64,000 nucleotides of DNA, from assembly GCA_949292905.1 (NCBI GenBank), contig CASFAV010000006.1, forward strand, positions 67,456 through 131,455, written 5' to 3'. Positions 1 to 51,753 of the stretch are shown one piece after another. Source of the DNA: an uncultured Eubacteriales bacterium. Its GTDB lineage: Bacteria > Bacillota > Clostridia > Christensenellales > DTU072. Both the position numbers and the translations under genes were made by a program. Positions within the stretch are counted from its first letter, which is position 1. Each line of letters starts with the position of its first letter. The notes beneath the pieces are model-generated. The model saw only the letters and a program-made list of their open reading frames with translations. It was not told the DNA's origin and searched no databases.

Positions 1-39
1 TTGATAATGGAGTTTCAACGACTCTTTGGCATAATCCAT
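1..39 (-). CDS. 5' end of a CDS running off the left edge (13 codons visible: MDYAKESLKLHYQ); product not assignable
   Basis: ATG at 39-37 on the minus strand, preceded by GGAGGA (complement of 51-56), and open to position 1. The N-terminus vaguely recalls malic enzymes, but 13 aa is too short to name. Confidence 0.3.
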   Translation of the reverse strand, partial: MDYAKESLKLHYQ

Positions 40-5655: not shown

Positions 5656-6506
5656 AAATCGGTATCGTAGGACTGGGATTGATAGGCGGCTCGCTCGGCA
5701 GACAGATAATACGCAATACCTCGCACACGGTGTACGGCTACGACATTTCCGAAGACGCCATGCTTAAGGCGCAGATGCTGAACGCCTGTCACGAAAGGCT
5801 TGACGTCGAAGCGGAGCGGATGGATCTGGACTTGTTGATCGTGGCGCTCTGCCCCGAAGCCGCCATAAAAGTTATTCGCGAATTCGCGCCGCGCATGAAA
5901 AAGGGCTCGATAATCATAGATACCTGCGGCACAAAGCGCAAAGTCGTCGCGGCGATGGGCGCGTTGAAGGACGAATATCCCGACGTGGGCTTCGTCGGCG
6001 TGCACCCGATGGCGGGCAGGGAATACAGCGGCATATCTCATTCCACCGCCACTCTTTTCGAACACGCTTACATAATCCTCACTCCGGTACGTACGGATCT
6101 CGAAGCCGAAGAGAAGATAAGAGCGTTTTTCCTCGAGGCTGGTTGCGAGGGGATAACCACGGCGAGCGCCGCGACGCACGACAGGATGATAGCCTACACG
6201 TCGCAACTCGCTCACGTCGTTTCCTCCGCTTATATCCGCAATCCGCTTTCGGAGACTTACGTCGGCTTTTCCGCAGGAAGCTTCAGGGATCTGACGAGAG
6301 TGGCGAAACTGAACCCCGATATGTGGACGGAACTTTTCACCGAGAATAAGGACAATCTCGTCGAATGTATAGACGTACTTCAGCAGAAATTATCGGAATA
6401 CCGCGACGCGCTCGTAGCGGGCGATAACGCTAAACTTCACGCCGCGCTCAAGGAAGGAACGATGATGAAAGAGGCGGCGGAGAAATTGAGGAGAGACAGG
6501 AAATGA
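5652..6506 (+). CDS. tyrA: prephenate dehydrogenase
   Basis: GTG start overlapping the aroF stop. MKIGIVGLGLIGGSLG Rossmann motif and the GVHPMAG motif. Confidence 0.9.
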   Translation: MKIGIVGLGLIGGSLGRQIIRNTSHTVYGYDISEDAMLKAQMLNACHERLDVEAERMDLDLLIVALCPEAAIKVIREFAPRMKKGSIIIDTCGTKRKVVAAMGALKDEYPDVGFVGVHPMAGREYSGISHSTATLFEHAYIILTPVRTDLEAEEKIRAFFLEAGCEGITTASAATHDRMIAYTSQLAHVVSSAYIRNPLSETYVGFSAGSFRDLTRVAKLNPDMWTELFTENKDNLVECIDVLQQKLSEYRDALVAGDNAKLHAALKEGTMMKEAAEKLRRDRK

Positions 6507-7762
6507 GCGTCAAAGCCGTTCGCCCGCATAGGCTCGAGGGAGTAGTAAATATCCCCGCTTCCAAGTCATACGGACACAGACTTCTTATTGAAAGTTTCGC
6601 TTCGGGTAACCCCGTGACAGTAAAAGGTAACCTAATCGGCGACGATATTGAAGCCACCGTCGGGTGCCTCAGGTCTTGCGGAACAAGGATAGAGCGCTCG
6701 GAGCGCGGTATAAAAGTGATCCCCTCCGATAAGCCCGCGAAGCGCGCCGACGTGTTCTGTAAGGAGTCGGGCTCCACGTTGAGATTTTTGATGTCGGTGT
6801 TGCCCGCCGTGGGAGTAGAAGCCTCTTTTTCGGGATCGGGCGAGCTTCCTTCGCGCCCCGTGGGCGCGCTTCTCGACTGCCTTGCCGAGGCGGGAGTTAC
6901 CGCGGACAAGCCGCGGCTTCCGTTTACGTTGCGCGGAAGCTTCGCGCGCGGAACGCGCTTCGTGCTCAAGGAACTCAAAAGCTCGCAGGACGTAAGCGGA
7001 CTTCTCATGGCTATGCCTTTGATAGAGGGCGCTTCTCTGGAGATAGAGGGCGCGCTTCCGTCCGAAGGGTACGTTTCGGTCACTCTTGAAACGCTGGAGG
7101 CTTTCGGGGTGCGTTACGAGCGGAAAGGCAACGCCTACCGTCCGTTGAACTCTTACGGCGCGCCGAGCGAGGTGGAAGCGGAAGGGGACTGGAGCAGCGC
7201 CGCTTTCATTGCTGTCGCGGGCGTGCTTACCGGTGAAACGGAGATAAAGGGATTGAAATATCCCTCCCTTCAGCCCGATTCCGCTATCGTAGGGCTTCTT
7301 AAAGAAGCGGGCGCGGATATAGGTTTTGCGGGCGGCGCGCTCGTAGCGCGTAGATCCGCGCTACGAGCGATCGAATTCGACGCCGACGGTTGCCCCGATC
7401 TGGTGCCGGCGATGTCGGTAGCTCTCGCCGCGGCGAAAGGAGTTTCCGTCATACGCGGCGTGGACAGACTGCGTTTCAAGGAGTCGGACAGGATAGCTTC
7501 CGTCATAAACATGCTTAAGGAGTTCGGCATACGCGCGGAGTACGCGGAGAACGGACTTAAAATTTACGGAGGGGAGCTCGCGGGCGGCGGAGTAGTCGAC
7601 GGCGCCGGCGATCACAGGATAGCCATGAGCGCCGCAATAGCGGCTTCGGCGGCTTCGGGAGATAAGGAAACGCTCGTTCGCGGCGCGGAATGCGTGTCCA
7701 AATCATATCCCTGTTTTTACGAAGATATCGCCGTGCTCGGAGGAATAGTGTATGAAAGGTGA
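6503..7762 (+). CDS. aroA: 3-phosphoshikimate 1-carboxyvinyltransferase (EPSP synthase)
   Basis: 419 aa with IPASKSYGHR, the ...DHRIAM motif and KESDR. ATGA overlap with tyrA. Confidence 0.93.
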   Translation: MSVKAVRPHRLEGVVNIPASKSYGHRLLIESFASGNPVTVKGNLIGDDIEATVGCLRSCGTRIERSERGIKVIPSDKPAKRADVFCKESGSTLRFLMSVLPAVGVEASFSGSGELPSRPVGALLDCLAEAGVTADKPRLPFTLRGSFARGTRFVLKELKSSQDVSGLLMAMPLIEGASLEIEGALPSEGYVSVTLETLEAFGVRYERKGNAYRPLNSYGAPSEVEAEGDWSSAAFIAVAGVLTGETEIKGLKYPSLQPDSAIVGLLKEAGADIGFAGGALVARRSALRAIEFDADGCPDLVPAMSVALAAAKGVSVIRGVDRLRFKESDRIASVINMLKEFGIRAEYAENGLKIYGGELAGGGVVDGAGDHRIAMSAAIAASAASGDKETLVRGAECVSKSYPCFYEDIAVLGGIVYER

Positions 7763-48682: not shown

Positions 48683-48712
48683 TTGCAATTTATTTATCGC
48701 GCGTGATATAAT
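48683..48712 (+). promoter_or_regulatory. extended -10 promoter
   Basis: TTGCAA, 18-nt spacer, TGaTATAAT. Confidence 0.55.
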
Positions 48713-48741: not shown

Positions 48742-49248
48742 ATGGCACAATACAGGATCAGACAAAAGTATTTCTCGTTCAAGGATTCCTTTACCGTCAC
48801 CGACGCATACACCGGCGAAGAGCGTTACGCTTGCAGAAGCAAAGTCGTCACTCTGCCCAAAAAATTCTGGGTAGAGCGTATAGACGGAACTCCCATGTAT
48901 TTCGTACGTCAGCAGATGTTCCGTTTTCTTCCCCGTCTGGATATTTACAGGGGCGTGGACAAGGACGGACAGCACGTCGCCACGGTAAAAGCGAAATTCT
49001 CTCTATTCCGTAAAAAGTGTATCGTTCACAGCGAGCAATACGGCGATTTCTTCATTTACGGCAACATTTTCGCTTGGGATTTTTCGATCTATGCGGGACA
49101 TAACGCCGACGGAGAGCTCGTTGCGACGATAAACAAGAAGGTTTCGCGTATCGCGGACACTTACGATATAAATATTCTTGCGGGCAAAGAAGGCTTTATG
49201 CTCACGCTCTGCATAATCATAGACTATTTGTATCAGAAAAAGCATTAA
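48742..49248 (+). CDS. LURP-one-related / tubby C-terminal-like (DUF567, YxjI-like) protein
   Basis: 168 aa. MAQYRIRQKYFSFKDSFTVTD..GEE......K..TL.KKF.V....G and a repeated F.IY.. pattern. Confidence 0.7.
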   Translation: MAQYRIRQKYFSFKDSFTVTDAYTGEERYACRSKVVTLPKKFWVERIDGTPMYFVRQQMFRFLPRLDIYRGVDKDGQHVATVKAKFSLFRKKCIVHSEQYGDFFIYGNIFAWDFSIYAGHNADGELVATINKKVSRIADTYDINILAGKEGFMLTLCIIIDYLYQKKH

Positions 49249-49440
49249 TATTCCGGTATACGGGTACCGTCTTCGCTTCGCGAAGCACGGCAGGCAATGC
49301 GTAAGAAACGACGCAGACAGGCGGTAAGCGATAAGCTTGCGTAAGTTATGCGTCGCGATATGTTTACGTCGTGCGGCGGTACGCAGAACGGCATAATCAA
49401 TTTATCCGAAATTATAAAAGACAATAAAAGGAGAATATCT

Positions 49441-50472
49441 ATGGCAAAAGTAAAAGTTGGCGTAGCGGGATACGGCGTGATCGGTCAGCGTCTCGCGGAC
49501 GGCGTAGCCCGTCAGAAGGATATGGAACTCGTCGGCGTAGCGGACGTTGCGCCCACGCTTGCGGTGAGAGCGCTTTACGAGAAGGGAATGCCCTATGCGC
49601 TTTATCTTGCCTCCGAGGACAAACGCGCCGAATTCGACCGTCTCGGCATACCCGTATCCGGCACTATGGAAGACATGGTCAAAAAGTGCGACGTCGTGCT
49701 CGACAGCTCGCCCGGCGGAATAGGCGCGCGCAATAAAGAGCTTTACGTCCGTCTCGGCAAAAAAGCGATATTCCAGGGCGGCGAGAAGAATTCCGTCGCC
49801 GACGTATTCTTCCACGGATACGCCAATTACGAGAAGGGACTCGGCAAAGACTTCCTGAAGCTCACTTCCTGCAACACCACCGGACTCATCAGGAGCGTGG
49901 ACTGCCTCGATAAGGCTTACGGCATCGAGCGCGTGGCGATAACGATAATCCGCAGAGTGGCGGATCCCGGCGATTATCACAGAGGTCTTACCAACGCCCT
50001 CCAGATAGACAAAGCTCCTTCGCACCAGGCTGTGGATCTCATGACGATAATGCCGCACGTGGAAGCCACCGGCATACTCGTACATACGCCCATCACGCAC
50101 GGGCACATAATCACCGTAGTCGCTACCGGTAAGCAGAAGATCACCAAGGAAATGGCGCTCGAAGCTTTCTCCAAGCATCCGCGTATCCGTATAGTCAGCA
50201 TAGCCGACGGTTTCCTCGGCAATGCGTCGCTGTTCCGTTACGCTCGCGATCTCGGTAATCCCCGCGGCGATATGTACGAAATAGCTTTGTGGGAAGACTC
50301 CATCGTGGAGACGGGCGACAGCATCATGTACGCCATCAATATCCCGCAGGAAGCGGTCACGATACCCGAAACGATGGACGGTATCCGCGCGGTTATGAAC
50401 ATGCAGGCGACTTCCGAGGAAGCGACCGCAGTCACCAACAGCTATCTCGGCATAGGAAAATGGAAAAAATAG
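49441..50472 (+). CDS. gap: type II (archaeal-type) glyceraldehyde-3-phosphate dehydrogenase
   Basis: 343 aa. VGVAGYGVIGQRLADGV, IFQGGEK, active-site SCNTTGL and ...IPE... are collinear with archaeal GAPDH as I recall it (e.g. Methanothermus). The bacterial SCTTNC motif is absent. AAAGGAGA Shine-Dalgarno site. Confidence 0.85.
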   Translation: MAKVKVGVAGYGVIGQRLADGVARQKDMELVGVADVAPTLAVRALYEKGMPYALYLASEDKRAEFDRLGIPVSGTMEDMVKKCDVVLDSSPGGIGARNKELYVRLGKKAIFQGGEKNSVADVFFHGYANYEKGLGKDFLKLTSCNTTGLIRSVDCLDKAYGIERVAITIIRRVADPGDYHRGLTNALQIDKAPSHQAVDLMTIMPHVEATGILVHTPITHGHIITVVATGKQKITKEMALEAFSKHPRIRIVSIADGFLGNASLFRYARDLGNPRGDMYEIALWEDSIVETGDSIMYAINIPQEAVTIPETMDGIRAVMNMQATSEEATAVTNSYLGIGKWKK

Positions 50473-51701
50473 GCATTAAAAATCTTATAGGCGCGGACGT
50501 ACGCGGTAAGCGCGTACTGTTCCGCCCCGACATAAATTCTCCCGTGAACGCCGAAGGCGAAATAGTCAACGACAACAGGCTCGATAAGACGATACCCACG
50601 TTGAGGTACCTCGTCGAATCGGGCGCGAAAACGGCGATCATTGCGCATCAGGGCGACACGCTGGACTATCAGAATCTTATCCCGCTTGCGGCGCACGCGA
50701 AAAGGCTCACCGAACTCAGCGGCATAAAGGTGGATTATATCGACGACGTATGCGGCGACGCGGCTATAGAGAGGGTGAAAGCGCTTAAAGAGGGCGAAGT
50801 CATAATCCTCGGTAACCTCCGCTATCTCACGGAGGAAGTTTCCACTTTCGAAAAGGACGTCAAACTGACCGCCGAGGAGATGGAGAAGACCTATCTCGTG
50901 AGAAGGCTGGCGCCGCTTTTCGACGTTTACGTCAACGACGCTTTCAGCGCGGCGCACCGCAACGCTCCGAGCATGGTGGCGTTCGAAAGGCTCATGCCTT
51001 CTTACGCGGGACCGCTCTTTTTCAAAGAGTACGAAGCGCTTTATACGGTCATGCACAACGCCGACAAGCCCGTCGTATTCGTATTGGGCGGAGCGAAGAT
51101 ATCGGACGCTTTCGGCATGATGGACAAGGTGCTCGCGGACGGCGTCGCGGACAAGATCGTTACCTGCGGAGTCACGGGCGTCGTGATGCAACTCGCACGC
51201 GGCGTAAAAGTGGGCGCGAAATACGAAAAATGGCTTGCCGACAAGGATCTTACCGTGTTCGTGGAGCAGGCGAAGGGCTTGCTTGCGAAATATTCGGACA
51301 AGTTCGTGCTTCCCGTCGATTTTGCCTATGAAAAAGGCGGCGCGCGCGCCGAAGCGAATTTATCCGAGCTTCCCATAGACGACGCCATGTTCCTCGATAT
51401 AGGCGCAAAAAGCATATCCGACGCCGAGAAAGCGATAGCTTCGGCGGGAACGATATTCGTCAACGGTCCCGCGGGCGTGTACGAAAACCCGATGTTCGCC
51501 GAAGGTACCGACCGCGTATGGAACGCGATAGCGAAAGCGAAAGGATATTCGGTGATAGGCGGCGGTGACACGGTAACGGCGGCGGCTAAATTCATCGAGC
51601 TCAAAGATATAAGCTACGTCTGCACGGCGGGCGGGGCGATGGTGCGCTTCCTGAGCGGCAAGAAACTTCCGCTCATCGAGGCGATGACTTCTTCGAAATA
51701 A
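50460..51701 (+). CDS. pgk: phosphoglycerate kinase, archaeal-type sequence
   Basis: 413 aa. GKRVLFRPDINSPV...AIIAHQG...NLRY... and FVNGPAGVYE, GGGDT. The RxDINSP block is the archaeal form, versus the bacterial DFNVP. The start overlaps gap by 13 nt. Confidence 0.85.
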   Translation: MEKIGIKNLIGADVRGKRVLFRPDINSPVNAEGEIVNDNRLDKTIPTLRYLVESGAKTAIIAHQGDTLDYQNLIPLAAHAKRLTELSGIKVDYIDDVCGDAAIERVKALKEGEVIILGNLRYLTEEVSTFEKDVKLTAEEMEKTYLVRRLAPLFDVYVNDAFSAAHRNAPSMVAFERLMPSYAGPLFFKEYEALYTVMHNADKPVVFVLGGAKISDAFGMMDKVLADGVADKIVTCGVTGVVMQLARGVKVGAKYEKWLADKDLTVFVEQAKGLLAKYSDKFVLPVDFAYEKGGARAEANLSELPIDDAMFLDIGAKSISDAEKAIASAGTIFVNGPAGVYENPMFAEGTDRVWNAIAKAKGYSVIGGGDTVTAAAKFIELKDISYVCTAGGAMVRFLSGKKLPLIEAMTSSK

Positions 51702-51753
51702 CATAAGCGCGTCGCGCGGCGTTGTCCCGGCGCGCGTACGCCGGAGCATAACG

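Follow-up and report, generated by a model that had tools for sequence, protein, structure and literature searches.

Why does a bacterium with canonical glycolytic genes of its own also keep a glyceraldehyde-3-phosphate dehydrogenase (GAPDH) and a phosphoglycerate kinase (PGK) of archaeal type, encoded side by side? The question is raised by a stretch of DNA of 64,000 nt, here called the window, from an uncultured Eubacteriales bacterium of the gut (class Clostridia, lineage DTU072; assembly GCA_949292905.1, contig CASFAV010000006.1, forward-strand positions 67,456-131,455). The contig is labelled C6 below, and the genome to which it belongs measures 1.95 Mb in 16 contigs and is 99% complete. 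Two genes of the window are at issue, namely gapII, which encodes a dehydrogenase of the type II GAPDH family, and a gene for a PGK-like kinase that starts within its 3' end. An earlier note on this DNA had given the overlap of the two genes as 13 nt, which the coordinates of the open reading frames (ORFs) confirm, and both frames are intact. The features on which the argument turns are the following.

49441..50472, plus strand: gapII, type II (archaeal-type) GAPDH-family dehydrogenase of 343 amino acids (hidden Markov model, PDB matches, residue contrast and tree)
49543..49545, plus strand: Asp35 codon, where archaeal type II GAPDH has the NADP-associated Lys (residue contrast and archaeal structures)
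49870..49872, plus strand: codon for the catalytic Cys144, which is Cys140 of M. fervidus (sequence; conserved in 78/78 clade members)
50460..51701, plus strand: pgk-like kinase gene, 413 amino acids, class A of the PGKs found with gapII, called module PGKs below (Pfam, PDB ranking, residue table and tree)
50655..50657, plus strand: codon for Asp66 in H-Q-G-D-T, whose aligned counterpart is Arg65 (H-L-G-R-P) in PGKs of bacteria and eukaryotes and Lys/Arg in those of Thermococcales

Our preferred reading, to which we give a probability of about 0.55, is that the pair is not a second glycolysis copy but a retooled aldehyde-to-ATP module, being the D-malate-forming, ATP-yielding part of a transketolase-dependent inositol route. 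The wider claim is that bacteria have turned the GAPDH and PGK families to a new substrate-level phosphorylation that starts from non-phosphorylated D-malate semialdehyde, within an ATP-yielding, kinase-free route of inositol fermentation, and we regard it as evenly balanced; gut and rumen anaerobes would perhaps use such a route for other keto-acid sugars as well. Substrate, product and yield of ATP are inferred from what was observed, namely family membership, gene context, residue changes and patterns of co-occurrence and exclusion. A specialized role had already been suggested in the earlier note, with a gluconeogenic or an NADP-linked function as examples. The specialized role is likely, whereas neither example agrees with an invariant Asp35, the loss of an Arg from the PGK and a context of malate, transketolase and inositol genes.

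The proposed route would begin with IolG, IolE, IolD and IolB, by which inositol would be converted to 5-dehydro-2-deoxy-D-gluconate. A split transketolase would take the C6-C5 glycolaldehyde unit from this acid and leave D-malate semialdehyde (OHC-CHOH-CH2-COO-), a cut that would bypass IolC, the kinase that spends ATP, as well as the aldolase IolJ and IolA. GapII, acting as an NAD-dependent, phosphorylating enzyme, would oxidize D-malate semialdehyde, which is the carboxylate analogue of glyceraldehyde 3-phosphate (GAP), to D-malyl-4-phosphate, and the PGK-like kinase would use this acyl phosphate to phosphorylate ADP, so that D-malate is released and ATP formed. From D-malate, a nickel-dependent malate racemase together with malic enzyme would lead to pyruvate, while in Actinomycetota a decarboxylating D-malate dehydrogenase would do so instead. 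By the established stereochemistry of transketolase, cleavage of this 5-keto acid leaves exactly the C4 aldehyde acid with a D-configured hydroxyl, and such a product would therefore need a racemase or a D-malate dehydrogenase always at hand.

The assignment of the dehydrogenase to the type II (archaeal) form, made in the earlier note from motifs, holds by every measure applied. Both quoted motifs are present (IFQGGEK at residues 110-116, SCNTTGL at residues 143-149), the protein scores 409.7 bits against the 'type II GAPDH' profile NF003251 (cut-off 185) and 310.4 bits against TIGR01546 (cut-off 232.9), its PDB matches are four only and each archaeal (2czc, 1cf2, 1b7g, 2yyy), and the tree discussed below agrees. 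A contrast of 78 core-clade members with 66 other type II GAPDHs, in which comparison positions follow M. fervidus numbering, indicates what has been kept and what has changed. The catalytic Ser143-Cys144-Asn145 and His222 of the window protein correspond to Ser139-Cys140-Asn141 and His219, and the Ser, Cys and Asn are conserved in all 78 clade members; the roles of these residues are taken from PMC12041015. According to the same paper, citing Charron 2000, a Lys after the second beta-strand is tied to NADP dependence in archaeal type II GAPDH. This Lys occurs in 28 of the 66 other type II GAPDHs and in all four archaeal structures, whereas Asp35 occupies its position in 78/78 clade members, and because Asp35 replaces the NADP-associated Lys, gapII is predicted to use NAD rather than NADP. 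The second phosphate site keeps His195, while the residue at His194 is Gln (Gln196) in 100% of the clade as against His in 88% of the other type II GAPDHs, and Lys140 is specific to the clade where archaeal enzymes have Arg136. Judged by its residues, the catalytic machinery is intact, and the clearer sign of a changed substrate lies in the PGK. As a side observation, a divergent sub-branch of the bacterial gapII clade lacks the catalytic Cys (PPSLI or QPSLV in place of SCNTT; P0249, P0252, P0258) and may represent a pseudo-enzyme or a changed mechanism; in locus L095 such a Cys-less gapII (6001-7011) still lies between a split transketolase and a PGK-like gene.

The kinase matches PF00162 at 363.8 bits and is 32% identical to the canonical PGK of its own genome. 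It carries RPDINSPV, the archaeal N-terminal block to which the earlier note had drawn attention, and this attribution is supported both by the tree and by the PDB ranking, in which the archaeal 2cun (P. horikoshii) reaches 273 bits and the other 45 PGKs listed at most 197 bits. We compiled a residue table, in human PGK numbering, of 69 module PGKs together with two bacterial and five archaeal (Thermococcales) PGKs. The module PGKs fall into two classes, class A with 25 members and class B with 44, which are 49-77% and 40-47% identical to the window protein, respectively; identity with the canonical PGK is 28-37% for either class. Residues equivalent to D23, N25, R38, H62, R122, R170, K215, N336, E343 and D374 are retained in 69/69 module PGKs; among them K215, N336, E343 and D374, which serve nucleotide binding and phosphoryl transfer, are retained in the window protein. 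In PGK structures, His62, Arg65, Arg122 and Arg170 form the basic patch for the phosphate of 3-phosphoglycerate (3-PG). Of these four, R65 is lost, the position being non-basic in 69/69 module PGKs, so that the patch is incomplete despite the retention of His62, Arg122 and Arg170. The replacement is Asp in 25/25 class A proteins (as Asp-Thr) and Ser, Gly or Asp in 44/44 class B proteins (mostly as Ser-Asp), compared with Arg in both bacterial references and Lys or Arg in the five from Thermococcales. The two classes also bear on the history of the pair, as near-alike gapII genes (77-83% identical to the window's) are found with either class (L017, L021, L023, L025 and L033 vs L016, L018 and L019) while the partner PGKs are about 42% identical to each other; hence partners have been exchanged between modules during evolution.

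Gene context was surveyed in 80 loci with gapII genes at 45-94% identity to that of the window, found by scanning species-representative genomes with an alignment of 12 sequences. Neighbouring ORFs were called, their proteins were clustered, recurrent families were named with NCBIfam, and partner genes within 6 kb were sought with tblastn. A PGK match lies beside gapII in 74 of the 80 loci, downstream in 70 and upstream in 4; the inverted order, pgk then gapII, was noted in the Spirochaetota loci L031, L032, L037 and L042, where it directly follows iolG-B-D-E. Within 6 kb of gapII, malate enzymes (malate racemase, malic enzyme or tartrate/D-malate dehydrogenase) are encoded in 53/80 loci, a split transketolase in 38/80 and iol genes in 33/80, and any malate, transketolase or iol partner is found in 64/80. 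The neighbours could be identified as the malate racemase LarAH6 (560.9 bits, cut-off 500), iolD (885 bits), iolE (411 bits) and iolG (435 bits); an NAD(P) malic enzyme, both halves of the split transketolase and iolB are further recurrent neighbours. Actinomycetota loci have an enzyme of the tartrate/D-malate dehydrogenase family that scores 438.9 bits with TIGR02089, just under the cut-off of 470.4. In L077, L079 and L083 (Actinomycetota and one other bacterium) a gene of this family directly precedes gapII and replaces racemase and malic enzyme, which points independently to a D-configured hydroxy-acid product. Among the clustered neighbour proteins of the 80 loci, no cluster resembled iolC, iolJ or iolA, nor was any other conserved feeder pathway seen there.

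The window's own genome encodes candidate partners for each of these steps, at the following places.

C15:5495-11858: iolB-D-E-G with a transporter, the four iol genes at C15:7111-11858
C16:141661-142917: malate racemase (553 bits; 51/51 highly conserved columns retained)
C6:66325-67494, minus strand: malic enzyme, starting inside the left edge of the window (1-39), closest of its kind to that of the module (72% identity) and about 49 kb from the pair
C5:2923-4687: module-like split transketolase, assigned to the module type by identity alone (46% median identity to module transketolases vs 35% and 38% for two other copies)

The same genome has no iolC or iolA above cut-off (best matches 106.8 bits vs 300 and 21 bits vs 448.5, respectively) and one class II aldolase (PF01116) only. 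Within the genus, iolD is present in 22/22 genomes, gapII in 21/22 and the racemase LarAH6, over its cut-off, in 17/22, the window's genome being counted each time; in one more genome the racemase is cut by a contig end, so that 18/22 keep it.

In an even sample of 249 genomes from the whole class, gapII was found in six genomes, each of a different family. The racemase exceeds its cut-off in every one of them, compared with 23 of the 243 other genomes, an association whose hypergeometric probability would be about 1.5e-6 if the genomes were independent of one another, a condition that does not hold. iolD is present in five of the six, compared with 11/243 of the others. Among the 17 iolD-positive genomes, including that of the window, seven have iolC and six have gapII, with zero overlap; the chance of this is 330/19448 = 0.017, again assuming an independence of genomes that does not hold. 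This complementary pattern of iolC and gapII is what replacement of the IolC branch predicts. One genome of the class sample, G273, has two gapII copies and three racemase-family matches, of which two exceed the cut-off and the third falls short of it; iolD is 2.3 kb away from one gapII copy (C23), and a racemase 4.4 kb away from the other (C28).

A published assay of a likely relative gives a further hint. The type II GAPDH of P. thermosuccinogenes was inactive towards GAP, whether NAD or NADP was supplied (Koendjbiharie et al. 2019), and the same authors state that no functional evidence exists for such type II GAPDHs in bacteria. The primers used to clone that gene encode the termini VKVGVA (N) and GMGKWK (C), which are typical of the present clade and absent or rare among the 66 other type II GAPDHs, and the enzyme is thus a probable clade member. 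In the literature we found no paper that joins inositol, transketolase and malate racemase, nor one that mentions 'malate semialdehyde' with inositol; papers on malate racemase leave its physiological role open, and none of the partner genes is mentioned in them.

A number of observations weigh against the preferred reading and must be set beside the above. The pair in its own genome is linked to none of the iol, transketolase and malate genes, and in same-genus loci it is likewise unlinked from iol; its role at home is one that we infer from gene context in other genomes and from co-occurrence. G284 and G037 have gapII and racemase without iolD, G022 and G024 have gapII without racemase, and four iolD-positive genomes lack both iolC and gapII. 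The negative GAP assay in P. thermosuccinogenes may reflect misfolded protein. A further difficulty concerns the racemase, for LarB, LarC and LarE all fall below cut-off in the window's genome and the family as a whole, represented by 25 genomes, yielded no LarC, whereas LarC is present in order-level relatives with the racemase (G029, G037). This lack of larB, larC and larE, which are needed to make the nickel-pincer cofactor of the racemase, tells against the step from D-malate to L-malate in the genus. Some of these observations would be accounted for if the chemistry were as proposed while the main substrate in this genus were not inositol-derived but another acid aldehyde arising from a transketolase or aldolase, e.g. 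tartrate semialdehyde converted to tartrate, the pair then serving several feeder pathways. The missing linkage to iol genes here and across the genus, the genomes G037 and G284, the presence of iol genes near only 33/80 loci compared with malate enzymes near 53/80, and the affiliation of the flanking enzyme in Actinomycetota with a tartrate/D-malate dehydrogenase family at a score short of the cut-off (438.9 bits vs 470.4) would all suit such a substrate. We nevertheless think it unlikely, given that iolD accompanies the genus throughout (22/22, with gapII in 21/22), that gapII and iolC are exclusive of each other among iolD-positive genomes, and that the 80 loci reveal no alternative conserved feeder pathway.

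It is equally doubtful, in our view, that the pair is a true second GAPDH/PGK set working on GAP and 3-PG, perhaps NAD-linked and reserved for one flux direction or growth condition, like GapA/GapB in Bacillus. Both proteins match their families strongly, gapII retains its catalytic residues, and its substrate-phosphate residues Arg171/Arg172 (= Arg167/Arg168) are unchanged, within I-I-R-R-V-A-D-P, a fact that counts against a changed substrate, as gapII may then act on GAP; H62, R122 and R170 of the PGK patch are likewise kept, the pair stands alone among housekeeping-type genes here, its codon usage is like that of well-expressed genes, and transketolase pathways both produce and consume GAP. 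Yet the genome already has canonical gapA and pgk-tpiA, R65 is replaced in 69/69 module PGKs and by Asp throughout class A, the tight link to malate racemase, malic enzyme or D-malate dehydrogenase involves enzymes without a role in triose-phosphate metabolism, gapII and iolC are mutually exclusive, and a probable clade member was inactive on GAP. The negative assay of that probable relative and the loss of the catalytic Cys in some distant ones could also be taken as signs that the pair, a leftover from a transfer long ago, is decaying or without function. This we hold to be most improbable, since the frames are intact with all catalytic residues present, gapII is 90-95% identical across same-genus loci whose other genes around it are 35-78% identical, codon usage lies at the 90th-95th percentile of typicality for the genome, and the gene pairing is conserved over at least seven phyla.

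How the pair came to be in this genome is a separate matter. The earlier note had considered that the lineage replaced or supplemented its glycolytic trunk enzymes by inter-domain transfer. Supplementation is what the genome supports; replacement is ruled out, as contig C13 carries a type I gap near 93.7 kb and the canonical pgk-tpiA pair at 123.3-125.5 kb. As to transfer into this lineage, the comparison of codon usage and GC content by which a foreign origin was to be recognized gave the opposite result. GC and GC3 (GC content at third codon positions) of gapII-pgk deviate by less than one standard deviation from the mean of the genome and agree with the values of neighbouring genes, and the two genes rank at the 90th and 95th percentiles for codon typicality among 921 long ORFs of the genome, which rules out a recent horizontal transfer visible by composition. 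Native composition, genus-wide synteny and purely bacterial clades together argue against acquisition from another domain by this lineage. GapII is present in 20/21 other genomes of the genus, in 2/3 other genera of the family and in 1/16 other families of the order. In a search of 1.84 billion cluster representatives, two clusters only exceeded 50% identity to gapII at full length (76% and 61%), the next being at 46%.

The 80 related loci, with the phylum of each taken from its record title, are all bacterial (Bacillota 54, Spirochaetota 11, Actinomycetota 6, Chloroflexota 3, Atribacterota 1, Synergistota 1, Myxococcota 1, unassigned 3). Cultured organisms represented among them include Flexilinea flocculi TC1, Clostridium magnum DSM 2767, Clostridium pascui DSM 10365, Lucifera butyrica, Christensenella hongkongensis and Dorea sp. 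D27. When 106 type II GAPDHs are placed in one tree, all those of the bacterial loci fall into a single clade, which has an approximate likelihood ratio (SH-aLRT) support of 100 and a stem of 0.75 changes per site, and within which branches are short and phyla are intermixed. Its sister group mixes archaeal and bacterial sequences with weak support (SH-aLRT 83), and the nearest representatives outside the clade bear names such as Caldinitratiruptor, Hodarchaeota, Aenigmarchaeota, Dehalococcoidia and Methanomicrobia. In the PGK tree, a 100/100 branch separates five canonical bacterial PGKs from the module PGKs and Thermococcales, and the module PGKs are one clade (98/96) that is sister to the PGKs of Thermococcales, the sole archaeal order sampled; the kinase is accordingly placed on the archaeal side of the PGK tree, a placement that rests on this one order. 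Phylogeny had been named in the earlier note as the check that could place both proteins in a broad, vertically inherited bacterial clade. Bacterial clades across at least seven phyla were indeed recovered, and the intermixing of phyla within them is at odds with simple vertical inheritance. 'Archaeal-type' is hence correct as a classification, while the trees assign the window genes to old, purely bacterial subfamilies spread horizontally among bacteria; since the clades are purely bacterial and their phyla intermixed, any archaeal origin must be old and was followed by spread among bacteria.

Among characterized systems, archaeal type II GAPDH (M. fervidus 1CF2, P. horikoshii 2CZC, S. solfataricus 1B7G, M. 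jannaschii 2YYY) belongs to the same family, with about 40% identity at full length. GapII shares its Ser-Cys-Asn, catalytic His and Arg-Arg site, and a thioester/acyl-phosphate mechanism would be expected of it; unlike the archaeal enzymes, it has Asp for the NADP-associated Lys, Gln for one second-site His and Lys for Arg136, and its context points to a carboxylate substrate and not to gluconeogenesis. For the kinase, the nearest solved structure (P. horikoshii 2CUN) and the sister group in the tree are PGKs of Thermococcales, with which it has in common the NSP and HQG signatures, the length and the catalytic residues. It differs from these in having Asp-Thr after H-Q-G, where theirs is a phosphate-binding Lys/Arg, and its gene goes together with gapII and, in the majority of genomes, with genes for malate enzymes. 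The Bacillus subtilis-type inositol pathway has the IolG, IolE, IolD and IolB steps in common with the window's genome and with many related loci, but this genome is without iolC, iolA and a second class II aldolase, and has transketolase, gapII, PGK-like kinase, racemase and malic enzyme instead. The B. subtilis route spends ATP and ends in dihydroxyacetone phosphate and acetyl-CoA, whereas the predicted route would make ATP and end in malate/pyruvate.

Precedents exist for parts of the proposed chemistry. Aspartate kinase with aspartate-semialdehyde dehydrogenase (ASADH), and the engineered malate kinase with malate-semialdehyde dehydrogenase, perform the same acyl-phosphate chemistry on C4-dicarboxylates, and ASADH belongs to the GAPDH-like superfamily; enzymes of this type run in the reductive, ATP-consuming direction, and their kinase has the amino-acid-kinase fold, not the PGK fold. 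To our knowledge, only engineered versions of a phosphorylating malate-semialdehyde dehydrogenase and a malyl-phosphate kinase have been built so far, and we found no published description of a reaction leading from D-malate semialdehyde to ATP. The later steps resemble carnitine breakdown in A. baumannii, for which the sequence malic semialdehyde, D-malate, pyruvate is established (PMC11353897), and that pathway uses a beta-decarboxylating D-malate dehydrogenase, as in the Actinomycetota loci. Aldehyde oxidation in A. baumannii is by a non-phosphorylating enzyme of the aldehyde dehydrogenase superfamily without gain of ATP, while the pair in the window would conserve energy.

If the proposal is true, two of the most conserved enzyme families of glycolysis also act in nature on a second pair of substrates, and phosphorylating malate-semialdehyde dehydrogenase and malyl-phosphate kinase activities exist in nature. 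Malate racemases would gain a physiological role, and the fermentation of inositol, an abundant plant carbon derived from phytate, with net ATP in gut and rumen anaerobes without iolC, iolJ and iolA would be explained. It would also follow that the racemase of this genus must be supplied with its nickel-pincer cofactor in a way that involves none of the known genes for making it, and that annotation labels such as 'type II GAPDH' and 'phosphoglycerate kinase' would mislead metabolic models.

There remains the immediate neighbourhood of the pair, of which three further features need to be given.

48683..48712, plus strand: match to a sigma-70-like promoter, with TG (TTGCAA-18-TATAAT), located 5' of the LOR gene (consensus scan only)
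48742..49248, plus strand: gene for a LURP-one-related (LOR, PF04525) protein of 168 amino acids (Pfam, 37.8 bits)
49249..49440, plus strand: intergenic spacer or leader of 192 nt, holding the GGAG ribosome-binding site of gapII (49430-49433, 7 nt before the ATG)

That the pair sits among ordinary bacterial genes, as the earlier note had it, is correct, the neighbours being an ABC exporter, the LOR-family protein, a metallophosphoesterase and flavoproteins. The order ABC exporter, LOR, gapII, pgk, flavoproteins is kept in 11 same-genus loci, across which gapII is 90-95% identical and its neighbours 35-78%. LOR lies directly 5' of gapII in every same-genus locus examined, despite an amino acid identity of 35-51%. 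Because the distance between LOR and gapII is short in same-genus relatives (20-60 nt) and a promoter-like site lies upstream of LOR, a joint LOR-gapII-pgk transcript is plausible, possibly starting at the match at 48683..48712; the consensus scan flagged no promoter-like site inside the spacer itself.

The spacer had been described as a leader of 190 nt containing several hairpins. It exists, at 192 nt, while the hairpins are not conserved. About 150 nt of it (~49262-49420) are an insertion specific to this genome, GC-rich, with short inverted repeats, present in single copy in the genome and missing from 12 same-genus loci. No Rfam match was obtained for 49249-49440, and its fold has z = -1.74, with 13 of 200 shuffles folding equally well, which is not clearly better than chance. 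A riboswitch or leader RNA in the spacer is ruled out by the missing Rfam match, the non-significant fold and the nature of the insertion, which the same-genus loci lack and which occurs once in the genome. At the other end of the pair, a sub-threshold Rfam match to the PA5194 thermometer (51661-51747; 25.3 bits vs a gathering score of 60) extends over the last part of pgk and the 52 nt between this gene and that for the metallophosphoesterase, and is probably due to chance.

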